Positions 6,173-47,872 of a stretch of 64,000 nucleotides of DNA are shown in pieces. Origin of the DNA: Naegleria gruberi (Eukaryota); assembly GCA_000004985.1 (NCBI GenBank), contig GG738851.1; one strand, given 5' to 3'. Every line of letters starts with the position of its first letter. Position 1 is the first letter of the stretch. Both the position numbers and the translations under genes were made by a program. A model generated the notes under the pieces. That model ran no database searches. It worked only from the letters and a program-made list of their open reading frames with translations, and was not told the DNA's origin.

Positions 6173-7165
6173 TAACGATGAACCTTAATGCCTTTTTTTT
6201 CAATTTATTAAAATGACTTTCCCGCGCATTTTTCCTTAATTGAATATTTTCGACCAACAGAAAGATTATGAACTTTTATTTGTTTATCTTTCGGGAATTG
6301 TTTTTTCTTTGACACCAAGATCATCATGCTTTTTCCTTTTTTTAAACTTTAAGGTCATATGCTAATGAGTTGTGCATCTACAGATATTCGAACACTGTAG
6401 ATTATTCGGTAAAGAGGTTTCGAATATTGAATCATGAAACATCTGCAAGGATGAAAAAGGGAAATCTATGAATTAATATTTTAAGTTACTGAATGACCAA
6501 ATTGAAATTAACTAGTTTTATTAGTGTGGGTTAGTAATACATTCTTTCCAAATGCATGATTTGTTTGATGCCACATCTCAGGAGATATGATTTTAAGCAA
6601 TTTGGAAAACAACTTTTTTGTGTTTTAAAGTGCTTTATTTTGAAACAACACAAGAAATCAAACAATCTTTTGATAATTAGTTGAAGATTCAGCCAACTAT
6701 GATATCTTTTCAAAGAACATCAAGTCTTTATTCTATAATTGTCTAATCCTTAAAATTTTCATCTCACTTTCCAGCAAGAACCGTAAAAAACCTTTCGGAT
6801 TGAAGAGGTGAATAGTAGCTGTTGTGTTCGTACGAATACGATCTGTACATGTATTACTCTCGACATGTGCTGCTCGCGTCCCAGTTTCATAAACAAAGTA
6901 TTCTATTGGAGGTTGTATGACAGGCCTTTCACCTCCCTTGATGGCTTCTACAGCTACAACCTCAAACAACATTAGTCTTAATTCGTATTTTTCAGATGTT
7001 GTATGAGTATAGGGGATTACACCTTAAACTTTTTATCTCCAAACACTAAAAGAAACTAAAAAACAAAAAAACAAGACGATGATATCAACTCGAAATTTCA
7101 TCTCTGTCAATTGTGGTAAGATGATTACTATCAGCTGCAGCAACCAATGTTTATCGTATGTCCTC

Positions 7166-10100
7166 ATGTTGAGCATGCTTCTTTCCATACTTATTGTTTC
7201 AACAACTGTGGCTCAGGAAAGCTTTGTTTCAACTATTGCAGGTGGAGGTGTATGTGATGGTTATTTAGCAACTCAAGCCTCATTGGCATATCCTGGATCA
7301 CCAACTATTGGTCCAGATGGTTCAATTTATATAGCAGATAGTTCAAATCACAGAGTTCGTCAAGTTTATCCGAATGGTACCATTACTACCATTGCAGGAA
7401 CTGGAATTTCAGGTTATAATGGTGATGTCATTCCAGCAACGAGAGCTCAATTGAAAAATCCTGTATCAGTTGCTGTTAATTCGATTGGAGAAGTTTTCAT
7501 AAGTGATAATGGAAACAATAGAATTAGAAAAGTATTGACTAATGGTACAATTATTACTTTTGCAGGAAGTGGACAGACAACTTTTTCAGGAGATTATGGA
7601 TTGGCCACCAATGCAGGAATTAACTATCCCTATGGTATTGCACTCACTAGTATTGAAGAATTGATTATTTCCGATGTAAATCATAATAGAATTCGTAAAG
7701 TTTTAACCAATGGAACCATCTATACCATTGCAGGAAACAATATTCAAGGTTACAATGGAGATAACAAGTTGGCAACAAGTGCTTCCTTGTTTCTGTCCTT
7801 TGGTGTTAGTGTTGATGCAAATGATAATGTCTACATTGCGGACACTGACAATGATAGAATTCGTAAAGTTTTAACCAATGGAACCATCTATACCATTGCA
7901 GGTATTGGAAATAGTGGATTTTCTGGGGATGGAGGTTTGGCAACTGCAGCCAAGATTAGCTCTCCTGAAGGCGTTTCAGTTTCTCCTGAAGGCGAAGTTT
8001 ATTTTGCAGGTTTGTAATTCTTTCTATTCGAAACTTTAACTTTACAAGATACAAGTAATAACAGAATTCGAAAAATTTTGACAAATGGTACAATTTTAAC
8101 TGTTGCAGGAACTAGTTATGGATTCTTAGATAACACAACTGCCAGTCTTGCACTGCTAGGAAATCCTGGACAAATGTTCATTGACAAGAATAGTGGAGAT
8201 GTGTATTTTGCTGATAAAGGAAGTCACAGAATTAGAAAGATTTCTAATGGATTTATTACTTCTGTTGCTGGTTCAGGTTCTGCAACTTTTTGTGGCGAAA
8301 ACATTGCTTCAAGTGCATGTGCTTTAGCTAAACCAAAAGGTGCAGTCATTGATTCATTAGGAAATATTTATATTGCTGGTAAGTTTTATTATAACATAAT
8401 CATACGAATCCTCTTCTTTGCAATATATAGATACAAACAATAATCGTGTGAGAAAGATATCATATTTGGATGGTACCATTAACACCATTGCTGGAACAGG
8501 AAGCAATGGTTATAATGGAGATGGTATCTTGGCAACAAGTGCACAACTTAACAGACCTTCAAGTGTTGCTATGGATTCGGTTGGTAATGTGTTTGTTGCA
8601 GGTATGTACTTCTTTCTATTGGAAACTTTAAATTTCTACAAGATACAAGTAATAACAGAATTCGAAAAATTTTGACAAATGGTACAATTGTAACTGTTGC
8701 AGGTGTTGGATCTAGTGGTTTTAATGGTGATATTTTGGCAACAGATGCAAAATTGAGCAACCCTGTTTCAGTCACTATTGATTCGAATGATAATGTTTAC
8801 ATTGCCGATACTTACAATCATAGAATTCGAAAGATTTTACAGAATGGAAATCTAACAACAATTGTTGGATTAGGATCGAGTGGTTTTAATGGTGATTATC
8901 TATTATCAAACGGAACCAAATTAAACTATCCACAATCCATAGCATTTGATTCGAATGGTAACATGTATATTGCAGGTAAGTTGTTTTTTGTAAACAACTA
9001 ATCAAGTGAAAAATTGATTCCACTAATGACACAGATATGAACAATAATCGAATTAGAAAAATGTTAACTAATGGAACTATTATCACAGTAGCAGGAACAG
9101 GCGTTTCAGGTTATAACGGAGATGGAATATTGGCAACTGTTGCTCAACTCAAATATCCACAAGGAATTGCAATTGAAAATGATGAATTGATTATTGCTGA
9201 TTCTTCAAATCATAGAATTCGTAAAGTATTAACAAATGGAACAATTATCACCCTTGTAGGAACAGGTACTTTGGGATACAGTGGAGATGGTCTGGTTGGA
9301 GCCAATTCACAAATTAATAACCCATCAGGAGTCGTTGTAAAACAAAATGGTGAACTAATTGTTATTGATTCGGATAATAGTAGACTCAGATTGATTTCCA
9401 CACCTCGTCAATGTAATGGAACATTGGCAAGTGATTCAAATGTGTGTAGTGGTGTTGGTATTTGTAGTGCACCTGAGACATGTGATTGTGGAAACTTGTT
9501 TGGTGGTCAATTCTGTGAATATTCCAAATGTTTCGGTATTCTTTCGAATTCATCAAGTGTTTGTTCATCACATGGAATGTGTATTTCCCCAAATACTTGT
9601 TCTTGTAATTCTGGTTTTTATGGATTGAATTGTCAAGTTATGAAATGTTTTGGAATTGAAAGTAATGACACTTTAGTTTGTTCTGGAAATGGAAAGTGTG
9701 TTTCTATTGATTCATGCCAATGTTCAAATGGTTGGTCAGGTTCAGATTGTTCAATTCTTTCATGTTTTAATATCATGGCCAATGATACTGCTCAAGTTTG
9801 CAGTGGACATGGTAATTGCTCAAGTGTGGATAAATGTGATTGTGAATTTGGATGGTCAGGATTGAATTGTTCTGTAAACTCCACAATTCCAGAAACCAGC
9901 AACTCCACAATTCCTAATAACGACACCTCAATCAATACCAATGGTACTATTTTAAACAATTCTTCCACTACTAATGCCACTAGTTCAAATACTACCATCC
10001 CAACTACTAATCAAACTTCACCTCACTTGAATAATTCTTCAACAATTCCAGAAACAAGCAACTCCACAATTCCAAATAACGACACCTCAATCAATACCAA

Positions 10101-10548
10101 TGGTACTATTTCAAATAATTCTTCCACTACTAATGCAACTAGTTCAACAAATAATTCTTCCACTACTGATAGCAATAACAGTACACAAACAAATTCCACT
10201 CTTACTGGACAAAATTCGTGGAAATGTTTCGACATTCCAAATTCGGATTCGACAGTTTGTGGAGGTCATGGAATTTGCATTTCTCAAGATGTTTGTCAGT
10301 GTAAGGCCACTTCAGAAGATGGATATTGGACTGGATCAAATTGTACTTCATGTCAAACTAATTATTGTGGAAGTGGATGTAGAAGTAACATTTGTTCGAC
10401 CAATAATAACATGTATGCATTATTTACCTTAATGGCTGTTCCAGTAGTTGGAGGAATTGGATTAATAGCAGGTTTGGCATTTGGATTGAGATGGTGGTTA
10501 TTGAAACGTCCACAAATGATGAAAACTTCCACCCCTTCTGTAGTTTAA
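7166..10548 (+). CDS. type I membrane protein: signal peptide, about 14 NHL repeats, 5 tenascin-type EGF-like repeats, N/S/T-rich mucin-like stalk, TM helix, short tail; 5 exons
   Basis: Exons: 7166 (ORF opens at 7079; the signal peptide MLSMLLSILIVSTTVAQ starts at 7166)..8009, 8049..8378, 8431..8601, 8643..8975 and 9035..10548. Introns are 39, 52, 41 and 59 nt (gtttgtaa..acaag, gtaagttt..tatag, gtatgtac..acaag, gtaagttg..acag). The NHL motif [YF]IADxxNxRIRK[IV]LTNGTI recurs. The EGF pattern is C-x-G-x-G-x-C-x5-C-x-C-x2-G[WF]-x-G-x2-C. The TM segment is MYALFTLMAVPVVGGIGLIAGLAFGL. Confidence 0.8.
9883..10147 (+). repeat. tandem coding repeat (two near-identical copies of about 106 nt, period 159 nt) in the mucin-like stalk of the NHL/EGF gene
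   Basis: Copy 9883..9988 against copy 10042..10147. They encode IPETSNSTIPNNDTSINTNGTI(L/S)NNSSTTNATSS with only a few nucleotide differences. Confidence 0.7.
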
Positions 10549-10876: not shown

Positions 10877-12244
10877 ATGAAACGAACCTCTTCCGAAGAC
10901 AACTCTCTCGATACTTTTTCATCATCAAAAAAGCAAAAATCCAATCAATTATTGGAAATGAAACCTCTAAATATTCTCGTTTGTCGGTATGATCCATTTG
11001 TTTTGGGTCATGTATTCAAGTTTTGTTCGCCAATGGATTTGCCATCACTTGCTGTGGTGTGTAAGGATTGGCATGATTTGTACTTTTCCCGTGAGAAGAT
11101 CGTACTCATTCTGAAGGAGTGGGTCGATACTCAATGGAATAACAAGATTTGTTCAGGAAAATTGACATGGACTTGGTCTGTGGAATATAACCCAGAGAAT
11201 GAATATCATTCATTGGCATATTGGTTAAGATTGTTGAATGTATTGAAGGAAGTGAATATAATGATCACAGATGAGCAAGGGAAAAAAGATGATAATGATG
11301 AAGAAGAAGAAAACGAAGAGGAACATGATGACGAAGAGGAAGAACAAGACGTAGAGGAAGATGAAGAGGAAGATGACCAAGAAGATGAAGGAGAGGATGA
11401 AGAAAATGATGAACATGATGATACTGAGGATTTAAAGAAGATATCACATTCTGTAGAGTTTATTGAGATGGGCAATACGAAACTGTGTAAAATCACAACA
11501 TCCTCAAATAGATTTCTCCTAGTTTCGAATAATGGGAATATTATCCGTTTCAAAAGGAAGAAGAAGGAATTGTTATGCTCTTTTTATGGAGGTTTATCAT
11601 ATCCAAGTTTTGAAAATTGTAATTATAGAAGTGATTATTGGGTTTCCCTTGTTCCAGGTAAAAAGGGAATTTTAGTTTTGCAATTAAAACAAATGGTGAA
11701 ATATTTGGGATTTGATGATGAATATTTAGTAGCATGCAATCTCATTGACATTATTGGATTGAAAAAAGCGAAGGTTTCTAATTCAAAGTATACAGATTAC
11801 CCTTGGGATCAAGGAGAAGCTGACGGAATAATAGAATTTGTGCCTTGGGAAATTGTAACTGCGTGCACAACAAGTGATTATGACATATCGCATATTTGTG
11901 AATGTTTGGATGATCGATTTTTCAATAGTTTCGACTTATTCTGCAAGTTAATAGAAGTCAGTACTACCATGTACACTGAATCCATAATCAAGAATATTTC
12001 TCTCAAAGTTGACAGTGAATTTTTCAAGAATAGAGGGTTGTTGAAATATTGTCGTCAGGAAAGAAAATTATTCAAGTTATTGGATGAGTCATTGAGACAT
12101 GATAAGGAATTCCTTAAAGAGGCTCTAAGAGTCAACCCATCCATTCTCAAGTATCTTTTTAAAAAGGAATATACGGATATCATTGAAATTGATAGAGAGC
12201 TGATTTTAGACTGCTTGAATCGTTTAAGTGTAGCTCAGCAATAA
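10877..12244 (+). CDS. F-box-like protein with a long acidic (D/E) low-complexity stretch
   Basis: 455-codon ORF. The N-terminal LNILVCRYDPFVLGHVFKFCSPMDLPSLAVVCKDWHDL resembles an F-box. Residues around 135-180 are poly-D/E. Single exon. Confidence 0.6.
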   Translation: MKRTSSEDNSLDTFSSSKKQKSNQLLEMKPLNILVCRYDPFVLGHVFKFCSPMDLPSLAVVCKDWHDLYFSREKIVLILKEWVDTQWNNKICSGKLTWTWSVEYNPENEYHSLAYWLRLLNVLKEVNIMITDEQGKKDDNDEEEENEEEHDDEEEEQDVEEDEEEDDQEDEGEDEENDEHDDTEDLKKISHSVEFIEMGNTKLCKITTSSNRFLLVSNNGNIIRFKRKKKELLCSFYGGLSYPSFENCNYRSDYWVSLVPGKKGILVLQLKQMVKYLGFDDEYLVACNLIDIIGLKKAKVSNSKYTDYPWDQGEADGIIEFVPWEIVTACTTSDYDISHICECLDDRFFNSFDLFCKLIEVSTTMYTESIIKNISLKVDSEFFKNRGLLKYCRQERKLFKLLDESLRHDKEFLKEALRVNPSILKYLFKKEYTDIIEIDRELILDCLNRLSVAQQ

Positions 12245-12373: not shown

Positions 12374-15357
12374 TTACATGAGAAAGTTAATAATCGAAAT
12401 GATCAAGATTAAGATAAGTGAACATCTAACATTTGTAGATTGTCCAACAACAGGATTTGAAAGAGAAGATGTGGCATTGATAACTTCAGTAAATGGACTA
12501 CCAGTTGATGGAATGGTAGTTGGAGCAGATGGTTTCTCTGCTAAGGTAACATCCCCAGTAATGACCATACTGAATGCTTGTTTTCCCTTATTGGTGGATT
12601 TGGCTCCAACCTTGACTGTGAAATTACCTTGTGGTAAATTGGAAATTACAATACTTTCTGCAGTGTTGACCGTATCGAGAGTGTTGCCTGTGATGGCTCC
12701 ATTTCCATAATAATATTTCTTTCCAACAACTGCGACAACACTAATGTCGTTGATGAGTTTCTTGGTTTTTACAGAGCTAAGTGTATCAGCAGCAGATGGT
12801 AAATCGTACCAAGCAATGGTAACTTTCAGTGTGGTTACAGAATTGGCCTTCAAAGGAATGTCAACTTGTTGATTGGCATCAAGTGAATATCTATTGGCTA
12901 CGAGAATATTCTTAATTCTGTTCACACTTGCTGAATCAGTGTCAATCTTCAAGACATTTTGTAAATTGATTCTTCCAAAACCATTGTACTTGTTTGGTGA
13001 GTTGAATTGACTCAAATACAAATCAGTACCTCCAATTTGCACAAATCCCTTCATGACTTCTCCTGAGTGCAGAATCATGGCTTTGACCAAAGTCCCTGAC
13101 AAGGTTTGAGAAGGTGAACTATTGAAAATATTGTAATCGACTAATTTCTTCTTATTATCCTTTACCAAGTAGTGTCTTACCAAAGCTAATCAATTATTGA
13201 AACATTAAATGTAAATAATTAAATAAAATCAATGCCAACTACTTACCTGCTGCTCCAGAAACTGCAGGAGTTGCCATACTATATATGCATTGAAAAAGAA
13301 ATGTTAAATAACAAAGCTACACATCTCAAAAGCACTTACCTAGTTCCAGATTTTCCTACAGGATCACAAGAAGCAGTATTCAAAGAACTGATTGTACTGT
13401 AACCTGGTGCAGCAACTGAAAAGATTAATGTTAAGCTTTCAATTGTCAATGAGTGAAATACTTACTATCTGGTTTGATTCTATTATCATAGGTAGGTCCT
13501 TTTCCAGAAAAACTAGCCATATTCTCAAATTCAAAAACGGTATAATTTCTGCTTGTAAAGAACTGCTTGTAATAGGAAGATGGTGCATAGGAAGCGCCAA
13601 CTGTCAATGAATTCTTTGATGTGGATGGATCTCCCAAATTGGAATCAGTTGAGTATTCACCATCGTTACCAGCAGCCATTACAACAGTCACTTCATCATT
13701 TGAACTCAAAAAAGTGTCAACTCTATTACTGTCATATCCATAAAGATTACAATAGTGACAACATCTGGTACCAGTCAATGCCATACAAGAGGCATCAGTG
13801 ACAGCAGCACCTCGAGTATTATCAGAATTCAATTCATAGCATTTACAATCATAATCACACTAATAATGAGATTCAAGTTGACTGATTTTTCATATTATGA
13901 AAACTTACATCATAAGGATTACCACATCCCCAACTGTTACTTGAAATTTTAGATCCAGCATTGGTAAATGCATTAGACAAAACGGTATTCATATCACCAA
14001 TGTATAATCCTCCATTTGCTCCTGCTTGCACATCCACTGCATAGAGTTTGGCATCCTTGGCCACACCAACATTCTTATCCATGACTGTGGTTCCAAGTGT
14101 TTGTGGATATCCAGCAATGGTTCCTGCTACGTGAGTGCCATGACCTTCTCCATCTGTCAAATCACCATACTGTCCATTCTTATTATAGTAAACGACCTTT
14201 CTATAATTCAAATTAACACTTGTCTTGGTGCTTGGTTCACTACTGCCAGTAAAGAGACAATGTCCAAGAGTTATTCCAGTATCGATAACTGAAACAACCT
14301 CAGAGGCACCTGTAATTCCATTATTCCACATGTAGGTATAATTGGATCCACCTCCATTTTGAATCACTTGATTGGCTCCATAATTCTTAATCTCATGAAT
14401 ACGTTGACGAATGACCACATCTACAGAATCATCACTCGACAAGTAATTTAACAATTCCTGACCCATCTCACTTGACATGTCCTCTATTAATCCTTCAAGT
14501 TCTTGATTCATCTTGAAGAACTTTTGAATTTCTTCTCTTCTTTTCAATGATTGAACAATTGGAGAATCAAATTTTCCTTCTTTGATCAATTTCCAAACTC
14601 CGTAATCAAAGTTTGCGAGTGTGACTTGAACAGCATGAGTTTCACTTTGCCAATCGAGGTCGAATAGAGAGTTGGCTTGATCTCTGATGAATTCACGAAT
14701 GATAGTTTCGTCTTGTTGAGTGGAAAGTGCAGTTTCGGCAAGTTTCGAATTATGAATGGATTGTTGAATTTGTTGAATGTTTAGTTTGGACAAGGATCGA
14801 GTCATTTTTTGAGTATAACTGGAAAGGTACCAATTTCTCAATCTATTCATCGTTTGCAATCTTTCCATTTCGTTTAGTTTACTATCTAATACAATCTTCA
14901 AGCCACCAAGTTTCAACGAATCCAAACTAAGTTTCGTAAATGATTTCTTATCTGAATTCGAAACCTTCTTGATCCATTCAATATTCAATTTAGCAAAATT
15001 ATTATTCGAAAGCTCTTGAATCTGAAGTGTTGTGAGTCTTGTAGTAAAAACTGGAATGTCGGAATGAAATTGAAATTCCTTGTAATTGTCAACCTTCATC
15101 AATTGTGCCATTCTATTGAGAAAGTCATCTGTCATGATGGTATTATCACGTATTTTGACATGTACGAGCATTCTTTGGGTGTTTGAAATTGTTTGTGTGG
15201 TTTGTACATTTAATTTTGGAGTGTTGGAAACTGTTTCGAATAAATTTTCTACATGGTTGTATGTTTCCAATAGTTTGGAAGGTTCTTGTTGTAGTGAGAA
15301 TCCAATGCAACAAAGGAGTGCTGCAAAAAGTATCAATTTGGCAGCACCTAATGTCAT
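12374..15357 (-). CDS. subtilisin-like serine protease B (paralog of A); 5 exons
   Basis: Exons on the minus strand: 15357..13909 (1449 nt, the same length as exon 1 of A), 13859..13466, 13415..13340, 13278..13247 and 13185..12374. Donors are gtaagttt, gtaagtat, gtaagtgc and gtaagtag. Catalytic motifs are VIDTGITLGH, HGTHVAGTIAG, VVMAAGNDG and GTSMATPAVSGAA. The protein is about 920 aa. The C-terminus ILILIISIINFLM is hydrophobic. Confidence 0.8.
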
Positions 15358-35835: not shown

Positions 35836-38523
35836 ATGAATGAACATGCAATTCTCACCACTCGTCTCGCCAACGCTCCCTACAAAATCTTCGACTGGGA
35901 TCAAGAAGAGCCTCCTCTCTCTCATGAAAAAGTCATTGAAAACCACTACACTGCTGATGAGATTATTGATGAAGGTATTTCTCCAAATGAATATGGAAGG
36001 GCAAAGTTTATTTCCGAAGCCTTGATGATTGAAAATAGTGGTGTAACAAGACCACCAACAAGTCATGAAGATGATGAACCAAAGTTTTGGAGGAGAAAGG
36101 ATTTGTTGATTCCTGGAAAATCAATTCAAATTTCTTCAAAGATTACGACGGTGCAATTGTTGAACGAGGAAGAGCCTATTGAAGAAAGTGATGATGATTA
36201 TGAGGAAGATGGTTTTGAAACAATGGTCAATCAAGATCGTTGTATTTATATTGGAAGCATACTGTCCGAAACAGAATGTAGTGATTTGATTGATTCCACA
36301 TCAAGATTGGGATATGAGAAAATTGATAAGGAATATCCAAAGGAATATCTTAATAATGAGAGAGTTTTGGTCAAGAGTAAGAAACTTGCAGATATAATTT
36401 GGTCTCGAATTGTTCCATTCTTGAAAAAGTCTGATATTGATGGTGTGAAACCTTATGGTTTTGATAATGATGGTTGTTGGGTTCCTTGTGGAATTAATGA
36501 AGTTTTAAGATTCAACAAGTATAGTCGTGGAAGTTTCTTTAAACCTCACACTGATGCTCAATTCGTTAGAAATGATAATGAAAAATCAATCTTTACAGTG
36601 TTGATCTATTTGAGCTCCTTTTCTTCAACTACAACCTTTTTCCAAAAGGTTGGAGAGAAGATTGAGGATAATAATATTTCTTTTGATTTCAAACAGTTGG
36701 CGTGCATCGACTCAAAAGAAGGAAGTGTTGGTAAGTTGAACAGATTATTGCTAAATAATAATTTAAAGCCATATTTAACCATAATCTCTATCATGCCGGC
36801 GAAAAAATGGCTTATGGATCAAAGTATGTTGTGAGAAGCGAAATTATCTTCAAGAGAATTGATAAGGATAGTATTTATAGTATGGATTATAGAAATAGTG
36901 AAGAATTCAAACGGGTAAAGAAACTCATTGATGATAGCTACGAGTTGGAACGTCAAGGTAATTTAACCCAATCCACCATCAAATATGTCCAAGCTATGGA
37001 CTTGTCCCACTCCATTCAAAAAAAATCAAATAGAAAATTGAGTTTTATTGAAGAAAATCTTCCTGAAGAGATATTCGTTCACATATTTAACTATTTAACA
37101 GATGAAGAGGTCTGTAAAAGTGTCATTCCTATCAATTCTGAAATTAATTCAATTGCTAGATATGAAAACATGTGGGAACAAAGATTTTCTAATAAGTGGG
37201 GATCTAACACATTGGAAAAGTCAATCCTTGATAGAGCTATTAGCGTTAAATACGGTGAAAATTATGAACCTACCAATGAAGAGAAGATTGTATTTCATAG
37301 TAAGGAAAATGAAATTATCAATCTTCTTCAAAAAGATTGGTATAATGCATTTTCAGCCAGATCAAATATGGAAAAATCTTTCAATGCTGTACTTTTAGAT
37401 CTTGGACAACATACTTACAAGTATGGATTAGCAAGTAATAATACATATTGGAGATCAATGACAGCTGTCGGTGAACCTAATCATCCTGACTTTTATTTAC
37501 CATCCTATGGATTTGACGACGTTCTAACAGGGGATAGATTTTTTAACGCTCAATACCATTGTGGATTGAAACCGTTCTTTAACTCTAAAGGAGTACCCAA
37601 GAAGAAGTTGTTCAAAATATTCCTTTATCAGCTCTATAAGGAAGATTTAAGAGTTAAATTACAAGAACATCCTCTTCTCATGGCTGTTCCTCCTCACTGG
37701 GATAAAGAATATTTGAAAAAGGTAGAACAGGTTGTGGTAAGTTTTCTATATTGAAAATTATATTTAAATTCATTGATAGTTTTCTTTAGGTATTCCAGCA
37801 GTTCACTTTGTAAACTCGTTCAAGTTACTTGCATTGTATTATCAAAAACCAACATCCTTAATTCTTAGTGCAACACCATATGGATCGACATGTGTACCAG
37901 TTGTAGATTGTGAGGTTAAGACTGCATGTATGGATATGAATGTGTTTAACATGTACGAGAAGAATAGGAATATGAATAAGGATATGAAATATTTTGAAAT
38001 GACTTTCTGGGCGAAGGTATCAGAATTTTTGAAAATTGCCCCTTGCAGTCCTAGCCAAGATCAACAAGAATTCAATGAATTTGCACAAAACGTTGAACCT
38101 TTCGAATGGATTCCACACCACATGGTTTCACCAGCCAATCAAAGAGCCAATATTTCGGAATTTTTCTATTCTCATGTATGGGAAAATGTACAAAAATCAA
38201 TTACCTTAATTCGTAATCATCAATCTCTTTCCAATATCGAAAAAGAGCTAATGCTAAACAATATTGTAATAGTTGGTGGATTCTCAGCATTGACAGGATT
38301 TAGAGAAAGAATCAAGAAGGACATTTTGGAATATCTTGGAAATGAATACTCTCCATCATTTACTTTTAGAGAGCATAAGGTTGATTATTCTGTCAGAAAA
38401 ATAGGTAACAAGGTCAGCATTGTTGGACAAGATATGGACGTAGTTGGAGGAGCTAGAATTGTTTCCAATCTCTCAAACTTTAGAGAAATTTGTAGTTACA
38501 AGCAAGTAGATAACAAGTGTTAA
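35836..38523 (+). CDS. fusion protein: prolyl-4-hydroxylase-like 2OG-Fe(II) oxygenase domain + F-box + complete actin-fold domain; 3 exons
   Basis: Exons: 35836 (ORF opens at 35749 with TTG; the first ATG is at 35836)..36730, 36769..37736 and 37825..38523. Introns are 38 and 88 nt (gtaagttg..tttaaag, gtaagttt..ttcaag). The P4Hc motifs span intron 1 in frame: RFNKYSRGSFFKPHTDA (HxD) ... SVA|LIFNHNLYHAGEKMAYGSKYVVRSE (second His plus basic residue). The F-box is LPEEIFVHIFNYLTDEEVCKSVIPINSEINSIARYENMWEQRF. Actin-fold blocks are LDLGQHTYKYGLASNN, LRVKLQEHPLLMAVPPHW, LSATPYGSTCVPVVDCEVKTACMD, IVIVGGFSALTGFRERIKKDI and DMDVVGGARIVSNLSNFRE. The protein is about 853 aa. Confidence 0.7.
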
Positions 38524-39342: not shown

Positions 39343-42300
39343 TTAAATTTCCAGTTTGGCTTGTTTGAGTAGATTTTCCTTGTAATTTACAATTTCTTGA
39401 TAGGTCTTGAATTGTTGTGTAAAAATGAATCTAGAAAGAGTATCGCTCAGATTGAAACGAATTTGATTTTGAAGAGATTCTATTGATTCTGTGATTGATT
39501 CTTTCAAACCTTGTGGGAAGTTCATTGTCTTTTTACTTCCCATATTTTCTGCACTTTCTAATTCAACATTCAAATTATCTACAGAATCTAATCTCTTGAC
39601 TAGAGATGCGAATAATTTAGAGCAATCTGATGAAATATTAACTTCTTTCAAGGCTCCCATCTGAATATAAGTAACATAAATATGATTAATGACAGTTTTG
39701 ACTTGTTGGAAATCATTCAAACTTTCAAGAATGTTTTGGTTATTTCTGAGTTCCAAATATAATTGTAAATTTTCGAGTGAATATTCTTTTTCACAGAACC
39801 ATTCAAATAATTTCAAACCTTCACTATGCTCAATGAGCTTTCTAATATCGTCATCATCATCCTGTTTCTCCAATTGTTTTTTCTTGAATTTTTGAATGAT
39901 TAGAATAACCAAAGAGTAACCACCAAACACAAACAAATAACTAAACATGTACAAAATGTCAAACAGTAATGAGATGGAATCATTCAAGAGCAACATCTTT
40001 AGGGAATTTTCTTTTCTGAATGACAATCCTGACAGGCCAATGATTTGTGAGATTACCAAACACGTAAAACACATTACAAATAGACACATTTCAGCTCTAA
40101 AGTAAAGTGGTGAATCCAACCTTGTAAAAGCTTCACGAATTCCATATAGTGGCATTCTTAGAGCTTTTTTAGTTGCTGTGAAATTTTCAAATTTTTCTAA
40201 ACTCTTGCCAGTTATTAAATCATTTAAGGAAAAGTTGAGATTTGTTTTTTCATTATTCTCCTGACCTTGTTGTATAATTTCTCTTTCTTTTCTCTTTGAT
40301 ACGCATGTCATTATTAATTCTAATCCAATAATGCAACAAGTGATGAATCCTAATAAGAGAATGGAGCAGGTAAAGGAGATAGAAACAATATGAGTATAGG
40401 TCAAGCTTGTAATAACCCCAACACGAATAAGAATTACCCATAATACCCAATAAATCACATTCAGTGAAATGAAAAGACACATGAGTATTAGCATTACTCT
40501 TGTTGAAAGGAATAATTTTGTCAACTTGAGAATAGTTTCACCCTTTGGCTCTTTAGAATGGAACATAATATATATTTGATGATAAAAGTATTTCAGTACT
40601 TGGAATCTCACAACTTGATATAAATATGAAAAAAAAGCCGTTAGTGTCATTGTGTTTACAATAATTGTAAAAATATTGGAAATAATATTAGCAACCAAAT
40701 CACCATTCTGTAATTGAATAACTGTTGATTGACTTTGTTCAAAATCCTGCTGATTGCCAATAACACTATTGGCATAGCCCAGTAAAATTCCTCTCTGAGT
40801 GATTAACAGCATTGAACATTCAATAATGAGAGCTGTTATTCCAATATAAGGCGTAATAAATCTACTTCTTACTAGAATTGATTTTCTAAAGGTAACCAAA
40901 AGTGTAAGTATTGTAAGTGAAAGAAGCAAGAATAAACTACCAAATGAAATTTGGGCAATGTAGAGAGAGGAAATTTGCCTGAGATATTCAGTAGATGATG
41001 GGGTTTCTTGTTCAATAAATGCTGCAAAGAGAGTAGCATGATTACATTGGCAGATTAACTGATTAGTTTTGTTGTTAAAACTGAAAATTGAACATCCGTG
41101 GCTTTCCCATCTTTGGTTTGTTTCGTTCCAAAATTGACAACTTAATAACGAAGAATTCGAAATGGAAGAGTTAGTATCTATAGTGAATGTGATGTAAATA
41201 GGATCTCTTAGGTCGGATAAAGAGATTTGTGAACCAGATTTGTACATTGTAAATTCTTTTGATTTGGTTAATTGTGTGGAATTTCCATTGATATATAAAT
41301 TTTCATCAAATGTAATAAGAGACAAACCAATTTCGGAATAATAACCATCATATTTCGAAAGTATATAATCTGTAGCAAAGGAAACATCATTATATATTTG
41401 AGAAATGGTTCCAGTGTTAGATGTTTTGAAAAAGCTTGTAGTTGTTATGTTGATTAGATGTGAAATATAGGAATTAGGCACCATTGAATCTGAATAAACC
41501 TTTGCGTTTTGCTGACTGAGGATAATGGAAGATAATTGATTGCAGATATTCGATATATTAACGTATCCATTCAGCAAAATATTGCTCGTAGTTGATAATG
41601 TATTGAAAAGGTCAGTATCGGACATTCTTTGCTTGGATATAAACCCATTTGAATTCTTTTCAATTCTAACTTGTTCATATACTTTGGACAAGTACTCGTC
41701 TAATTTAGAACTCACTATGTAAGCTGATTTTGTTTCCAAGGAACTTGATGTTAATTGATTAATGACAGAAAGTGTCAAAGAAGGATTTTCGAATTGAATG
41801 TTAATGCTTCTAATGGATTCGTAAAGAATATCTGTATTTTGATTTGCTGATTGATCATATGGTACAATATTGGCCAAAACATTGTTAAGCCTAATTCTCA
41901 AAATCAAATCGTTCAAATCCTCAGAGTTTGGGATCACTTTCACAGAGCCAATAAATTCAGGATATTCATTAAAGAGACTATCTCTACAAATGACATATAA
42001 ATTAATTGAACTAAATGACATGTCATTTGTTCGATTATTTTGAATGAAAGGAAGATAGGTGGTGAGAGAGCTATTAGTGGAAAACTCACTCAGTCTAATC
42101 AAACTGTTCTCTCCAAATGAGTTTATGAACTCGAAACCGAAAGAGAACTCAAGATTGCCAAGAATGGGATCTGGTACTATCCAATTATTTAAATCTTCTT
42201 GAATTGTGAAAAGTGATGAAAGAGCCATACCTGATTGAGGTAAAATGGTGGCATTCGAATGGATTCTTTGGGGTGGTGAAATTAAAGGAAAACTCTCAAC

Positions 42301-45300
42301 AAATTCTACAGATTCTGTTATATTCATAGAGTTGTGGAATTTGACACTTAAAGTAACATTTCCTTGAAGTGAAGATGTAGTTCCTTTCAAGGAAAGAATA
42401 GGTCTAAACGAAAGTTTGAATAGTCCATTGGAAACCTTTCCATGATAATAAGCTATCAAAGATTCTGGCACATAAAAACTAGTTTGATTACCATCACTTA
42501 TTTTCCAAGAATACTTTAAATTTGTCCAAGTACAATTCGTGCAATTATTAGAATTAATAATCGATTCAAAATCTCCCTTTTTAAGAATCACAGAAACAAT
42601 GGACATATAAAATGAATTACTAGTTCCCTTAACAAAACCAGCAGGTTTTCCAATGATTTCTAATGACCTTTCTTCTCTACATTCGTTTCCAACAAATTTC
42701 ACTCCTTCATGACACTTGCAAGTATCAATTCCAATACATTTTCCATTTCCTGAACACACATTCGGATCATTAGATAGTTTTCCAAAGCAGGATGTTAAAT
42801 TACAGACTAATCCTTCTGGTGATTGAGTAAGGATATAGTATTCTTCTTTACAATAAGGAGAAAGCATTCGTATACGGTCATTGCCTGAATCTGAAAATAT
42901 TATTCTACCGTCGCTCAATACTGATAAACCCTGTGGATTGTTAAGATATGCTTGTTTAGCATCGGAATCTCCATTGAATCCTGCTGTTCCATTACCAGCT
43001 ATTATTGTACTATAGCCATTTAAATCTACTTTTCTAATGACATTGTTGTTGGTGTCAGCAATCAACATTTCGCCATTTGACATGTAAGTGAATGAGATAG
43101 AATAACCAAAGGTTGTATTTGTAGAAAAGGTTGTTTGATTCAATAACATTGAATCAATAACGTAACCACATTCCTTTTTCCCTGCTACTCGAGTCAAAAT
43201 TCCAGTTCCTGAAATATTAGTTTTCAATATACTACATCTGTCACTAAAAACTAGCTCATTATTCCTTATTTTCATATCGTAAATGTCTAAACTAGTATAG
43301 TTTGTTGGTACATTGTCTTCCATTTCCACATAATTGTAATTACCAGCAAATGTTGTAATAATTCCACTTGAGAATGAAACTTTTCTAATTCTATAAAAAC
43401 TATCTGACAGATAAATTTCATTATCAGTGAGGGCTAATGCTCTCACAAACCCAACGTAAGCATTGACAGCTAATCCATTATCACCAATACCACCTGCAAT
43501 AGTTTTAACAAAACCAAATGGTGTAACCTTTCGAACTCTATAAAAATCAGTATCACTAAATATCAATTCATTTGTAAATGGAGAAAATGCCACTCCAAAT
43601 GGATGGTTGAGGTTTGTACTAGTTGCCTCCAAATCTCCAGAAAATGGAGGTTGGACAACTCCTTTGGCTCCAGTTCCAGCCACGTTATACACCACATCTG
43701 ATCCATAATTCATCTTTTTGATAATGTGGTCAAGATATACAGCAACGAAGAGATCACCATTTGGAGAGAAGATAATTTGTGAAGGAAAGTTTAAACATGT
43801 TTTGTTTGCATAGCTTGTAGTACTGAAACCAGTGCATCCAGGAATATAGCCAATAACTGTCTTGATTAATCCCTTACTATCAATTTTTCTAACCATAAAT
43901 GAGTTCATATCTGAGAAGTAAATTTCATCTGTAATTGGGTGAACTGAGATTCCAAAAGGTGCTATATTGGTTGCTAGAGCAGCAAGACCATCTCCATTAT
44001 AGGAATAAACCCCAGTCCCAGCAATTGTTGTTATTAGACCAGTACTGTTACTAATCTTTCTAATTCTGTAATTTTCAGAGTCACAGAAAATAATATCACC
44101 ATTAGTTTCGTTGTAATAAACTCCTGTTGGCCCATTTAGAGGGGCAATAATTGCAGGACCCCCATCTCCACTATAACTACGGACACCAGTACCAGCGACG
44201 GTGGTTACTTGATTCGTCTTGGCAGTGAACTTTCTAATTCTTTGATTGTTTAGATAGTTGCCAAAAAACAGCATACCATCGCTTATAGAATCAGAAATTA
44301 ACAAATCGCCATTCGATAGGCAAGTGATGGCAGATGCAAAACCTATCCTGGCAGTTAATGCATCCCCATCTCTGTATCCTGATACTCCATCTCCAATGAA
44401 TGTTGAGATTATGCCATTCGAATCAATCTTTCTAATAACATAATTTCCAGCATCCACAATGTAAATATCACCTGTTGGACCAACACAAACACCTCTTGGT
44501 TGTGACAATTGAGAATAGATACCTTGATAACCATCACCAGCTAAGGTTGTCCTTGTTCCAGCAATAGTGACAGCTCTTTGATCGCTCTTTCTCAGTTTCA
44601 TAACCAAATTTTCAGATCCAACGTAAATGTCACCATTTGATAGAGATTGTACAACTGATCGCGGATAAATTACATCTGTTTCATTTCCAAAATTACCATC
44701 TGCAGAATACGCTCTATTACCAGTACCTAAAATTGGTTCAATCTTTGAGGAAGTATAATTTGATAGAGAATTCAATCTTATAACTCTGCTATTTCCCCAA
44801 TCAGCAATCAGTAATTCATCAGTTTGAGAATTGTAAAAAGTTCCTCTTGGTCTATACAAAGCTACAGAGCTTCCAACAATACCCATATATTTTCTCAAGC
44901 CATTTCCTGCTAATGTTGTAATTATTTTTGTATCCAAATCTATTCTACGTATTCTAAAATTGGAAGTGTCTGCAACGTACAAGAATCGTCCAGAAATAGC
45001 CAATCCTGTTGGATTATTCAAAGTTGCATTGATAGCAAGACCTCCATCTCCACCAAAAGCAGCCACTCCAGCATCGTTGGCCACAACTGTACGTACACTA
45101 TTCGAAATCTTTACAATTTGATGAGTTGACTCTGCCAAGTAGAAGTCTCCAAATGAGTCAAAAACCATTCCAATTGCCCCATTTGTACCACTATACAATG
45201 TGAATATTCTTCCTTCATTGGTGATTCTTCTGACCCTGCCAGTTTCTTCCAAATAAATTAATTCTCTAGTTAGTGGATGGAAAGTTAGAGTCAAAACCTT

Positions 45301-45981
45301 TGCAATACTTGCACTCGCTGCAAGAGATCCTTCTGGTGTATTTTTGTCCTCCACGCCTGTTCCTGCTATGGTATAGATGGTCCCATTAACTATCTTTCGT
45401 ATCGTATATTTGTAAGTATCACTAACATAAATTACATCATTTGCTTCATCAACTAGCAAACCAAATGGAGCACCCAGTTTGGCATCCAATGCAGAAATAT
45501 TACTCGAAAGATTTGAACCACCACCAGCTAGTAAGAGCATTGTATCTTGGCCATAGGAATTTTTATAGACCTTTCGAAGAGTGTTTTCATCTGTAAAGTA
45601 AACCTCTCCTTTAGAATTCACTGCTACACAAAATGGCCAATGAATTGAAGTGGTGGCAGGTGTGGGTCCTTTTGGAAAGTTTGTAGAATCAAAATTATAA
45701 TTGGGATTTCCAGCGAGAAAGTAAGAGTTTCCATCTGGTTTAATGTATCTGATCTGATTGTTTAAATAATCAGAGTAGTATATATTTCCAGTAGTGGAAG
45801 AAATAGCAATAGTTTGTGGCCAAAACATGCCAACAGTTAATGCGTTTTGCCCATCTCCATTAAATCCTCCAAGTAGTGTTGTTATCTTGTAGTTAACATT
45901 TGATGCAGTAGATTGGTCTCCTTTGGCGTTCGCTAGCAGAAGTAAGACAAAGATATACGTCATAAGATTAGAACATGACAT
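39343..45981 (-). CDS. giant adhesion-GPCR-like receptor: signal peptide, NHL-repeat beta-propeller region, EGF-like, GPS motif, 7TM, C-terminal RGS domain
   Basis: Uninterrupted 2212-codon ORF. N-terminal signal peptide MSCSNLMTYIFVLLLLANAKG. About 900 aa of NHL-type repeats. EGF repeat CFGKLSNDPNVCSGNGKCIGIDTCKCHEGVKFVGNEC. GPS motif CQFWNETNQRWESHGCSIFSFNNKTNQLICQCNHATLFAAF lies immediately before 7 hydrophobic helices. RGS box KLIEHSEGLKLFEWFCEKEYSLENLQLYLELRNN sits after TM7. Confidence 0.85.
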   Translation of the reverse strand: MSCSNLMTYIFVLLLLANAKGDQSTASNVNYKITTLLGGFNGDGQNALTVGMFWPQTIAISSTTGNIYYSDYLNNQIRYIKPDGNSYFLAGNPNYNFDSTNFPKGPTPATTSIHWPFCVAVNSKGEVYFTDENTLRKVYKNSYGQDTMLLLAGGGSNLSSNISALDAKLGAPFGLLVDEANDVIYVSDTYKYTIRKIVNGTIYTIAGTGVEDKNTPEGSLAASASIAKVLTLTFHPLTRELIYLEETGRVRRITNEGRIFTLYSGTNGAIGMVFDSFGDFYLAESTHQIVKISNSVRTVVANDAGVAAFGGDGGLAINATLNNPTGLAISGRFLYVADTSNFRIRRIDLDTKIITTLAGNGLRKYMGIVGSSVALYRPRGTFYNSQTDELLIADWGNSRVIRLNSLSNYTSSKIEPILGTGNRAYSADGNFGNETDVIYPRSVVQSLSNGDIYVGSENLVMKLRKSDQRAVTIAGTRTTLAGDGYQGIYSQLSQPRGVCVGPTGDIYIVDAGNYVIRKIDSNGIISTFIGDGVSGYRDGDALTARIGFASAITCLSNGDLLISDSISDGMLFFGNYLNNQRIRKFTAKTNQVTTVAGTGVRSYSGDGGPAIIAPLNGPTGVYYNETNGDIIFCDSENYRIRKISNSTGLITTIAGTGVYSYNGDGLAALATNIAPFGISVHPITDEIYFSDMNSFMVRKIDSKGLIKTVIGYIPGCTGFSTTSYANKTCLNFPSQIIFSPNGDLFVAVYLDHIIKKMNYGSDVVYNVAGTGAKGVVQPPFSGDLEATSTNLNHPFGVAFSPFTNELIFSDTDFYRVRKVTPFGFVKTIAGGIGDNGLAVNAYVGFVRALALTDNEIYLSDSFYRIRKVSFSSGIITTFAGNYNYVEMEDNVPTNYTSLDIYDMKIRNNELVFSDRCSILKTNISGTGILTRVAGKKECGYVIDSMLLNQTTFSTNTTFGYSISFTYMSNGEMLIADTNNNVIRKVDLNGYSTIIAGNGTAGFNGDSDAKQAYLNNPQGLSVLSDGRIIFSDSGNDRIRMLSPYCKEEYYILTQSPEGLVCNLTSCFGKLSNDPNVCSGNGKCIGIDTCKCHEGVKFVGNECREERSLEIIGKPAGFVKGTSNSFYMSIVSVILKKGDFESIINSNNCTNCTWTNLKYSWKISDGNQTSFYVPESLIAYYHGKVSNGLFKLSFRPILSLKGTTSSLQGNVTLSVKFHNSMNITESVEFVESFPLISPPQRIHSNATILPQSGMALSSLFTIQEDLNNWIVPDPILGNLEFSFGFEFINSFGENSLIRLSEFSTNSSLTTYLPFIQNNRTNDMSFSSINLYVICRDSLFNEYPEFIGSVKVIPNSEDLNDLILRIRLNNVLANIVPYDQSANQNTDILYESIRSINIQFENPSLTLSVINQLTSSSLETKSAYIVSSKLDEYLSKVYEQVRIEKNSNGFISKQRMSDTDLFNTLSTTSNILLNGYVNISNICNQLSSIILSQQNAKVYSDSMVPNSYISHLINITTTSFFKTSNTGTISQIYNDVSFATDYILSKYDGYYSEIGLSLITFDENLYINGNSTQLTKSKEFTMYKSGSQISLSDLRDPIYITFTIDTNSSISNSSLLSCQFWNETNQRWESHGCSIFSFNNKTNQLICQCNHATLFAAFIEQETPSSTEYLRQISSLYIAQISFGSLFLLLSLTILTLLVTFRKSILVRSRFITPYIGITALIIECSMLLITQRGILLGYANSVIGNQQDFEQSQSTVIQLQNGDLVANIISNIFTIIVNTMTLTAFFSYLYQVVRFQVLKYFYHQIYIMFHSKEPKGETILKLTKLFLSTRVMLILMCLFISLNVIYWVLWVILIRVGVITSLTYTHIVSISFTCSILLLGFITCCIIGLELIMTCVSKRKEREIIQQGQENNEKTNLNFSLNDLITGKSLEKFENFTATKKALRMPLYGIREAFTRLDSPLYFRAEMCLFVMCFTCLVISQIIGLSGLSFRKENSLKMLLLNDSISLLFDILYMFSYLFVFGGYSLVILIIQKFKKKQLEKQDDDDDIRKLIEHSEGLKLFEWFCEKEYSLENLQLYLELRNNQNILESLNDFQQVKTVINHIYVTYIQMGALKEVNISSDCSKLFASLVKRLDSVDNLNVELESAENMGSKKTMNFPQGLKESITESIESLQNQIRFNLSDTLSRFIFTQQFKTYQEIVNYKENLLKQAKLEI

Positions 45982-46864: not shown

Positions 46865-47872
46865 ATGTCCACCACACTCGTAGAGCTGTATCACTCTCCT
46901 GATATTCTTTCTCATGTTTTTTCTTTCCTTCCACTTGAAAGCATTGCCATGATGGAAAGATCATGCAAACATTTCGCAACCCTGTTGAGAGCCGACTACA
47001 TTGATAAGACAATATATTACCATTATATTTGTCAATTATTTAAATTAGATCCGAGCATCATGATGAAGGATGATGACACTTCATTATTACACATGTTTGA
47101 TCAGTTTTTGCAAGAAGAAAATTGCAGGGAGTTATTGATAGAGTTTTTTAGAGCTCCATTCATAGGAAATCGAGTTGAGAACAATGATCCTATTAATTCA
47201 TATTCAAATAAGGGAGGAGTTATTGATTTTAGTATTTATGTTCCTTGCAAATTATTGAGGGGATTATTAAGTCATTGTAAATATGATTTGGATGAAAATA
47301 TCAAGAGAACTTTACACAAATTTTTATTATTTGCTGGTGTTTCGTATTGGACTTTGGAAGTGGATTCGAAATTTCAATTAGCTAAATTGAATAGCAATGA
47401 GGTATTTACATTTAGAAAAAATCCGTACTCTTCCAATTCATTCCCATTCACACAATATTCAATGGGAAAGGGTCTGATAATGTTGTTGAATAATAATTTT
47501 AAAGAAATTGATCCAGAATTTTCACTTGCTATTTCACTTTCAGGTCCAGAGGATAGTGTAATCCTTTATAATGAACTTATTCGAAATGCTGAACCACCAG
47601 AAATGTGGGATGATATATTTTCACAATGTTCAAATCCTCCCTATTCCATGCAACCAGCAAATGAGGAAATTCAAGCACTAACCTCTCAATTATATAATGA
47701 TCATGATGGAAGTTGTGAACACTATTGTTGGAATGATTTTCTTCTTGAGGATTATTCTTCATGGTCAAGTTATTGGCTTGCTGGAGCTGAATGGTGGGGA
47801 TGTTACTCATTGACAACTTATGATTACAGTAAGCAACAATTTGTTATTGCAACTGCATCCACAACTGATTAA
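46865..47872 (+). CDS. F-box-like protein
   Basis: 335-aa ORF. N-terminal LVELYHSPDILSHVFSFLPLESIAMMERSCKHFATLL has F-box character. It is divergently arranged with the receptor gene, about 880 bp away. Confidence 0.55.
   Translation: MSTTLVELYHSPDILSHVFSFLPLESIAMMERSCKHFATLLRADYIDKTIYYHYICQLFKLDPSIMMKDDDTSLLHMFDQFLQEENCRELLIEFFRAPFIGNRVENNDPINSYSNKGGVIDFSIYVPCKLLRGLLSHCKYDLDENIKRTLHKFLLFAGVSYWTLEVDSKFQLAKLNSNEVFTFRKNPYSSNSFPFTQYSMGKGLIMLLNNNFKEIDPEFSLAISLSGPEDSVILYNELIRNAEPPEMWDDIFSQCSNPPYSMQPANEEIQALTSQLYNDHDGSCEHYCWNDFLLEDYSSWSSYWLAGAEWWGCYSLTTYDYSKQQFVIATASTTD

Follow-up and report, generated by a model that had tools for sequence, protein, structure and literature searches.

In Naegleria fowleri, 28 putative '7TM RGS' proteins have been described (Nf 7TM RGS1-4 and 24 others), in which a seven-transmembrane (7TM) domain is combined with a C-terminal regulator of G-protein signalling (RGS) domain; several of them have a GPS motif and an elaborate ectodomain built of EGF or lectin modules, and were called 'reminiscent of the adhesion GPCRs' (G-protein-coupled receptors) (Bosch, Jeck & Siderovski 2022, J Biol Chem 298:102167, PMC9283941). 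According to the same study, the isolated RGS domains of Nf 7TM RGS2-4 speed GTP hydrolysis on Nf Gα2, 3, 5 and 7 and bind the AlF4- (transition-state) form of Gα only, and Nf Gα5 and Gα7 are self-activating, their nucleotide exchange outpacing hydrolysis (PMC9283941). Furthermore, 7TM-RGS proteins are widespread in bikonts, and the Gα expansion of N. gruberi is lineage-specific (De Mendoza et al. 2014). As regards the adhesion GPCRs, the GAIN/7TM module is held to have originated in stem holozoans, the two domains being joined only in the holozoan receptors of this type (PMC12716839). Here we analyse a gene of Naegleria gruberi located at 39343..45981, on the minus strand, of a stretch of 64,000 nucleotides of contig GG738851.1 (assembly GCA_000004985.1; hereafter, the window), whose product (hereafter, the receptor) combines NHL repeats, a GPS motif, seven transmembrane (TM) helices and an RGS domain.

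The observation of a receptor open reading frame (ORF) with these four elements is confirmed. The interval 39343..45981 is a complete single-exon coding sequence, i.e., one ATG-to-stop ORF of 2212 codons plus the stop, with no internal stop in the translation or in the ORF list. Its product shares 100% identity over 100% coverage with P0002, a 2212-amino-acid (aa) N. gruberi 'predicted protein', and the public gene model is therefore the same single exon, in agreement with what a first-pass annotation, made from the sequence alone, had proposed. A plus-strand reading of the same interval was discarded, the frame being full of stops. From the N- to the C-terminal, the modules are a signal peptide, the NHL repeats, an EGF-like module, a stretch of about 250 aa, the GAIN/GPS region, the 7TM domain and the RGS domain; the features of the receptor reported below all lie on the minus strand.

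Judging from sequence homology, the receptor is a member of the heterolobosean '7TM RGS' family, having seven TM helices, an extracellular N-terminus, an RGS domain past TM7 and homology to the core of the N. fowleri proteins. The first-pass annotation knew of no described receptor with this architecture; this does not hold for the GPS-7TM-RGS core, which has been known since 2022, and it stands for the NHL ectodomain, which is not mentioned in the accessible portions of the text and supplements of Bosch et al. 2022 (PMC9283941). Thus, the kind of receptor was already described and what is new is its N. gruberi NHL-bearing member. The N. fowleri proteins belong to the same lineage, share the same core and likewise have large modular ectodomains, one of them (P0183) bearing NHL repeats as well; the published account reports EGF/lectin ectodomains and calls the site a 'GPS motif' only. 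To that account we add a full GAIN fold, a conserved strand resembling a tethered agonist and a bundle that is not of the 7tm_2 type. A search of the literature retrieved no paper tying the term 'GAIN domain' to Naegleria.

The string that the first-pass annotation had read as a GPS motif was indeed located at aa 1615-1655 (41017..41139). Its pattern is C-x2-W-x6-W-x4-C-x13-C-x-C-x-H-A-T-x-F-A-A-F, residues C1615, W1625, C1630, C1644, C1646, H1648, T1650, F1652 and F1655 are invariant across five homologs, and the Pfam GPS model scores 30.2 bits over aa 1614-1653 (curated cutoff, 22.5). Structure prediction of the region, which had been recommended as a check, was carried out with AlphaFold2 (AF2) on aa 1330-2212 using a 19-sequence alignment (mean predicted local distance difference test, pLDDT, 75; predicted template-modelling score, pTM, 0.56). 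The model comprises, in this order, a helical subdomain, a beta-sandwich, seven long helices and a bundle of eight to nine helices. The first two correspond to a helical GAIN subdomain A (aa ~1356-1490; 41512..41916) and to a subdomain B (aa ~1491-1657; 41011..41511), predicted to form a beta-sandwich with some 12 strands and a single short helix, the last strand being the sequence that follows the GPS. This model fits the definition of the GAIN domain as six helices plus a 13-strand sandwich with an integrated GPS (Araç et al. 2012, PMC3321182).

GAIN structures also ranked first when the receptor model was compared with the PDB using Foldseek, with BAI3 (4dlo) at E 6.9e-8 and CELSR1, BAI2, Gpr126 and full-length CD97 at E 3e-7 to 1.4e-6. 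Moreover, the last 85 aa of the family GAIN region aligned with the GPS regions of adhesion-GPCR- and PKD-like proteins (those bearing Pfam GPS or 7tm_2) with an hhalign probability of 99.1% (E 1.7e-18). The Pfam GAIN model (PF16489) was not among the Pfam matches of the receptor, so the assignment rests on the fold and on the profile match of the GPS half. The AF2 fold, the Foldseek ranking and the hhalign match together indicate that the GPS motif is the terminal part of a genuine, although predicted, GAIN domain, whose fold lies directly N-terminal to TM1.

The putative autoproteolysis site is H1648-A1649 / T1650 (41032..41040) and is immediately followed by the strand TLFAAFIE (in peptide form, TLFAAFIEQETPS), which resembles a tethered agonist. 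The logo built from 77 family sequences gives the consensus C-x-C-x-H-T / T-x-F-[SA]-[AT]-F-[ILV]-[EQ], in which H(-2), T(+1) and F(+3) are found in all 77 sequences and F(+6) in 75; positions +1, +3, +6 and +7 are near-invariant. At position -1, Thr is present in 74 sequences and Ala in the other three, the receptor itself reading H-A / T. The tethered-agonist consensus of adhesion GPCRs is TxFAVLM (PMC12716839), and the family strand aligns onto the T-x-F-A-x-L-M of the true adhesion receptors (hhalign). With the catalytic His and Thr in place and the usual Leu at -1 absent, autoproteolysis at this site is possible.

The 7TM domain spans aa ~1664-2039 (39865..40992) and embeds a long disordered third intracellular loop (ICL3, aa ~1894-1957). 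Exactly seven hydrophobic segments were found by hydropathy between aa 1670 and 2031, and both AF2 models of the bundle show seven long helices, in accordance with the seven helices that had been counted after the GPS. The topology is supported too, as the predicted cytoplasmic loops contain 26 Lys+Arg and the extracellular loops five, which satisfies the positive-inside rule. The assignment of the bundle to a known 7TM class was tried and rejected. No Pfam 7TM family was retrieved for the receptor or for 13 relatives even at E<=10, apart from spurious matches, and a 14-sequence bundle profile run against all PDB sequences likewise yielded spurious matches only and no GPCR. When 46 family bundles were compared by hhalign with five bona fide 7tm_2 adhesion receptors, the probability was 2.6% and the aligned part was limited to the tethered strand plus TM1. 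In structure, the bundle is about as near to one GPCR class as to another, class C having a slight edge.

According to these sequence and model comparisons, the bundle lacks the 7tm_2 (secretin/adhesion) character and is not an adhesion-GPCR bundle; hence, the adhesion-GPCR framing of the first-pass annotation applies to the presence of a GAIN/GPS region and of seven helices, and fails for the bundle itself. The family bundle has motifs of its own, namely FRKxQPVxSR after TM1, QVxRF at the end of TM3, YWxLWVIL in TM4, DxPLYFRxEM before TM6 and VFGG in TM7.

The RGS domain (aa ~2042-2207; 39361..39858) begins about 12 residues past TM7, which ends at aa ~2031, and carries an insert of about 30 aa ahead of its last helices. 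The RGS string pointed out by the first-pass annotation was recovered at aa 2056-2080, and both the Pfam model and the fold bear it out: PF00615 matches aa 2047-2130, scoring 32.6 bits when the whole protein is scanned and 37.1 bits for the C-terminal fragment (cutoff, 23.9), the sequence matches in the PDB are RGS3, 10, 18, 5 and 4, and the Foldseek matches reach a probability of 1.0 and a target-normalised TM-score (TMt) of up to 0.79. The HMMER alignment to RGS3/RGS10 pairs YSLEN with FSEEN, KEVNIS with KEVNLDS and DTLSRF with DSYSRF, and these motifs hold the Gα contacts E87, N88, N128, D163 and R167 (RGS4 numbering) of the RGS4-Giα1 complex. Among 76 family members, the equivalent residues are kept in 73 (N2115), 72 (E2070) and 68 (N2071, D2180 and R2184, each) sequences. 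With a score above the gathering threshold, a nine-helix fold and the Gα-contact residues kept, the domain looks catalytically competent.

The ectodomain begins with a signal-peptide-like N-terminus (aa 1-21, MSCSNLMTYIFVLLLLANAKG; 45919..45981), whose hydropathy peaks at aa 1-19, as expected from the signal peptide that had been proposed. It is followed by the NHL-repeat region (aa ~25-1055; 42817..45909), defined by Pfam, by PDB sequence matches and by the blade register. The repeats are those previously recognised, and their extent, put at about 900 aa, was underestimated, since the register drawn by eye gives about 1030 aa, with about 18 blades and a period of about 57 aa; on sequence grounds, this number of blades would be enough for three six-bladed propellers. 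The region matches TEN_NHL (119.7 bits; E 1.8e-34 and 9.7e-41) and NHL (108.9 bits; E 4.4e-32 and 7.1e-35), with multiple blades (PF01436 / PF25021) exceeding the gathering threshold, and in the PDB it retrieves a teneurin-like protein as the best match (9ifo/9pt5, E 2e-42), NHLRC2 and the NHL domain of TRIM71.

The six-cysteine EGF-like module (aa 1066-1104; 42670..42786) had been termed a tenascin-type EGF. Scanned alone, it remains below the Pfam thresholds (EGF_Teneurin, 18 bits vs a cutoff of 24.3; EGF, 17 vs 21.5) and is the weakest of the domain assignments; its EGF nature is supported by an identity of 62% and 50% to the Pfam-passing EGFs of the paralogs P0122 and P0123, respectively, and by 51% identity over 37 aa (E 3e-12) to an EGF of P0005. 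TEN_NHL and EGF_Teneurin are thus the best Pfam models for the ectodomain modules, and the Pfam scan of the protein returned no further teneurin family; the likeness to teneurins is that of generic NHL blades, to which bacterial NHL proteins are equally similar. The next stretch (aa 1105-1355, about 250 aa; 41917..42669) has no Pfam match at E<=10 and no meaningful PDB match. It is kept in close paralogs only (57% identity to P0122 and 35% to P0123) and may represent an undescribed domain. Lastly, 30 of the 35 N-x-S/T sequons of the protein fall within the ectodomain.

The first-pass annotation had also suggested looking for this architecture in other genomes, and GPS, 7TM and RGS were found together across Naegleria and Willaertia. 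An exhaustive HMMER search with a GAIN+7TM+RGS profile gave 557 matches at E<=1e-3, of which 74 reached E<=1e-30; module-wise scoring retained about 75-80 representatives (clusters at 50% identity) harboring GPS, the same 7TM and RGS. Word-indexed searches retrieved a single protein with the C-terminal 652 aa and three with a 19-sequence profile, the family being visible by exhaustive HMMER only. The source organism was looked up for 30 of the matches: the named family members among them come only from N. gruberi, N. fowleri, N. lovaniensis and Willaertia magna, and the rest were environmental contigs, apart from a single fish protein matched in the GPS region only. N. gruberi possesses at least 16 paralogs with GPS+7TM+RGS, and the N. 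fowleri proteins P0126 and P0183 match the profile at E 2.4e-177 and 2.0e-40, respectively. At least 12 family representatives have an NHL ectodomain, including P0183 and the Willaertia proteins P0093/P0161.

The closest paralog, P0122 (NAEGRDRAFT_80558), is 57-74% identical to the receptor from aa 1105 to the C-terminus (74% in the 7TM and 62% in the RGS domain), and the NHL part is remodelled: its distal ectodomain has a single short NHL block plus numerous EGF repeats, compared with 18 NHL blades and one EGF in the receptor. This pattern of identity, set against the NHL/EGF makeup of the two proteins, makes the comparison with this unlinked paralog a clear case of domain shuffling, the distal ectodomain having been remodelled after duplication on a conserved GAIN-7TM-RGS chassis.

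A homolog in N. lovaniensis (L001; PYSW02000051.1, 41-2682) is annotated as partial, the contig beginning inside the gene, and its neighbours (p450, asparaginase) differ from the genes around the N. gruberi receptor. The profile search also retrieved P0257 (1145 aa), with Chlamydia-PMP-type repeats, a GPS at aa 904-940 and a C-terminal protein kinase at aa 1009-1117; in this protein, the GPS is linked to a kinase instead of a 7TM domain.

Like the adhesion GPCRs (class B2; e.g., BAI3, latrophilin, CD97 and Gpr126), the receptor has a large modular ectodomain and a GAIN domain made up of a helical subdomain A and, as subdomain B, a beta-sandwich. The GPS contains in both cases four Cys, two Trp and H-x-T, and the T-x-F-A-x-hydrophobic-hydrophobic strand that comes next lies about 15 residues ahead of TM1. 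In contrast, their bundle is 7tm_2, whereas that of the receptor has no Pfam match, a low hhalign probability (2.6%) and no structural preference; they have Leu at -1, where the receptor family has A or T; their tail couples to G proteins, whereas the receptor terminates in an RGS domain with the features of a GTPase-activating protein (GAP); and they are holozoan, whereas the host of the receptor is a discoban.

The AtRGS1-type proteins have seven TM helices and then a C-terminal RGS domain in one chain, as in the receptor, the likeness being that of domain order. AtRGS1, with a length of about 460 aa, has practically no ectodomain and lacks a GAIN/GPS, and no plant protein was present among the 30 looked-up family matches. 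In both systems, a receptor-GAP acts or is presumed to act on self-activating Gα (PMC3386157, PMC9283941).

Taken together, sequence and analogy suggest that the receptor works as a receptor-GAP on self-activating Gα, under the control of contact or of a ligand, a reading to which we assign a probability of roughly 0.65; the evidence in its favour includes the kept Gα contacts and the GAP activity of RGS domains of the N. fowleri homologs. In this scheme, a surface protein of type-I orientation would couple its ectodomain, via a seven-helix bundle with the GPCR fold, to the RGS domain under TM7, and the membrane-tethered RGS, as a GAP, would hold the fast-exchanging Naegleria Gα in the GDP state. 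The NHL/EGF ectodomain would engage an extracellular partner, e.g., prey, substrate or another cell, and this binding might alter the conformation, location or abundance of the 7TM/RGS part, so that the GAP brake would be either relieved or strengthened, as in the AtRGS1 paradigm of plants. The GAIN/GPS region might add an extra step, in which the protein could cleave itself at H1648-A / T1650 and the conserved strand TLFAAFIE could serve the seven-helix bundle as its tethered ligand. This tethered-peptide switch, predicted from the motif, is proposed only tentatively. A similarly doubtful degree of belief attaches to the wider idea that the family represents an independent, non-holozoan fusion of GAIN and a seven-helix bundle, using H-T / T-x-F-x-x-F-[ILV] as tethered ligand and having GAP rather than guanine nucleotide exchange factor (GEF) output.

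The notion of a receptor carrying its own Gα off-switch, put forward in the first-pass annotation, is reasonable, but the G-protein-activating model is less supported than that of a receptor-GAP. In the former, the receptor would be an analogue of adhesion GPCRs, in which a tethered peptide or ligand triggers GEF activity and the fused RGS domain ends the signal of its own receptor. The invariant Arg at the cytoplasmic end of TM3 (QVxRF), the long ICL3 and the presence of the GAIN domain with its tethered-agonist-like strand would all suit such a receptor, and some N. fowleri Gα are not self-activating and hence need a GEF (PMC9283941). On the other hand, no GEF activity is known for 7TM-RGS proteins, the precedents in plants and N. 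fowleri being of control by GAP only; an RGS domain placed about 12 residues below TM7 would sterically compete with a GPCR-like docking of Gα; and the class-defining G-protein-coupling motifs cannot be aligned, because the bundle has no sequence homology to known GPCRs. We consider G-protein activation unlikely.

It is much less probable that the protein serves mainly in adhesion or prey recognition, with the 7TM-RGS part as an anchor or scaffold that is non-catalytic in G-protein cycling. A huge, heavily glycosylatable ectodomain with NHL and EGF modules is typical of binding proteins, and some RGS domains elsewhere act as scaffolds (PMC3971589); however, the Gα-contact residues are kept in 68-73 of the 76 members, conservation is higher in the C-terminal modules than in the ectodomain (as the values of the 7TM and RGS domains in the comparison with P0122 indicate), and the homologous RGS domains of N. 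fowleri are active GAPs. As for an artefact of assembly or annotation, in which two or more genes would have been read through as one, such a length of ORF is unusual in a gene-dense genome with 34% GC (the window has a GC content of ~34% and is gene-dense); yet a stop-free run of 6636 nt despite the AT-rich DNA, the same module order in at least 16 N. gruberi paralogs and three other species, and the collinearity of the N. lovaniensis homolog through GAIN-7TM-RGS make it scarcely credible.

Some points weigh against the regulated receptor-GAP as we have depicted it. At -1, instead of the canonical Leu, the receptor has Ala and most of the family Thr, and for this reason the predicted self-cleavage may fail. 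Moreover, the strand after the GPS is also the last beta-strand of the GAIN domain, and the demands of folding might by themselves account for its conservation. Outside the family, no relative of the 7TM domain is detectable by sequence; neither a ligand pocket nor G-protein coupling can be deduced from this domain. Lastly, the AF2 models derive from shallow alignments of 14-19 sequences, with a pLDDT of ~75, and the geometry between domains is unreliable (pTM 0.56).

G-protein signalling in plants and protists still poses the question of how 7TM-RGS proteins sense anything, no direct ligand being established, and the Naegleria family offers a handle on it, as its recognisable sensing module of the adhesion type (GAIN and the strand resembling a tethered agonist) is connected to a GAP. 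Should the GPS be cleaved and the strand act on the bundle, synthetic peptides could switch the GAP, and receptor-GAP signalling would become directly testable. This would also be relevant to the lethal relative N. fowleri, in which the 7TM RGS proteins have been put forward as targets for drugs. From the standpoint of evolution, the family represents either a counter-example or a convergent parallel to the linkage of GAIN and 7TM as a holozoan invention, and is an exception to the holozoan-only wording of PMC12716839, though with a different kind of bundle. Were the proposed fusion real, the stem-holozoan origin of the GAIN/7TM module would be contradicted and the tethered-agonist switch would be a portable module, evolved or recruited at least twice. 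The interest is family-wide and lies in a non-holozoan GAIN-7TM linkage, a non-adhesion bundle and a GAP as output, to which the receptor itself adds a previously unremarked type of ectodomain, with NHL blades enough for three propellers.

As regards the rest of the window, tblastn did not retrieve a second GAIN-7TM-RGS gene within its 64 kb. A multi-exon gene at 7079-10548 (+), with several short introns interrupting its NHL blades, codes for a type-I protein in which a signal peptide precedes NHL repeats and 4-5 EGF_2/EGF_Teneurin modules; a long mucin-like stalk, rich in Ser, Thr and Asn, then leads to one TM helix, and the tail is short. Its domain types are those of the receptor ectodomain. 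The first-pass annotation was right in assigning NHL repeats to this neighbour and in taking it for a type-I membrane protein. It went further in placing the two genes in the same local family, a grouping that we rejected: the local identity between their repeats is 28-45%, as for any NHL protein, and no closer than that between the receptor and unlinked paralogs or bacterial NHL proteins. Consequently, domain shuffling within a local family, which had been suggested on this basis, is not borne out.

F-box or F-box-like ORFs, mostly with weak matches, are located at 10877-12244 (+), 36807-37754 (+) and 46865-47872 (+), and two of them flank the receptor gene. Two further ORFs of 492 and 494 aa, at 4694-6172 (-) and 13873-15357 (-), respectively, each match Peptidase_S8 (subtilase) at residues 352-477 and appear to be a duplicated pair lying on either side of the NHL-EGF type-I gene.

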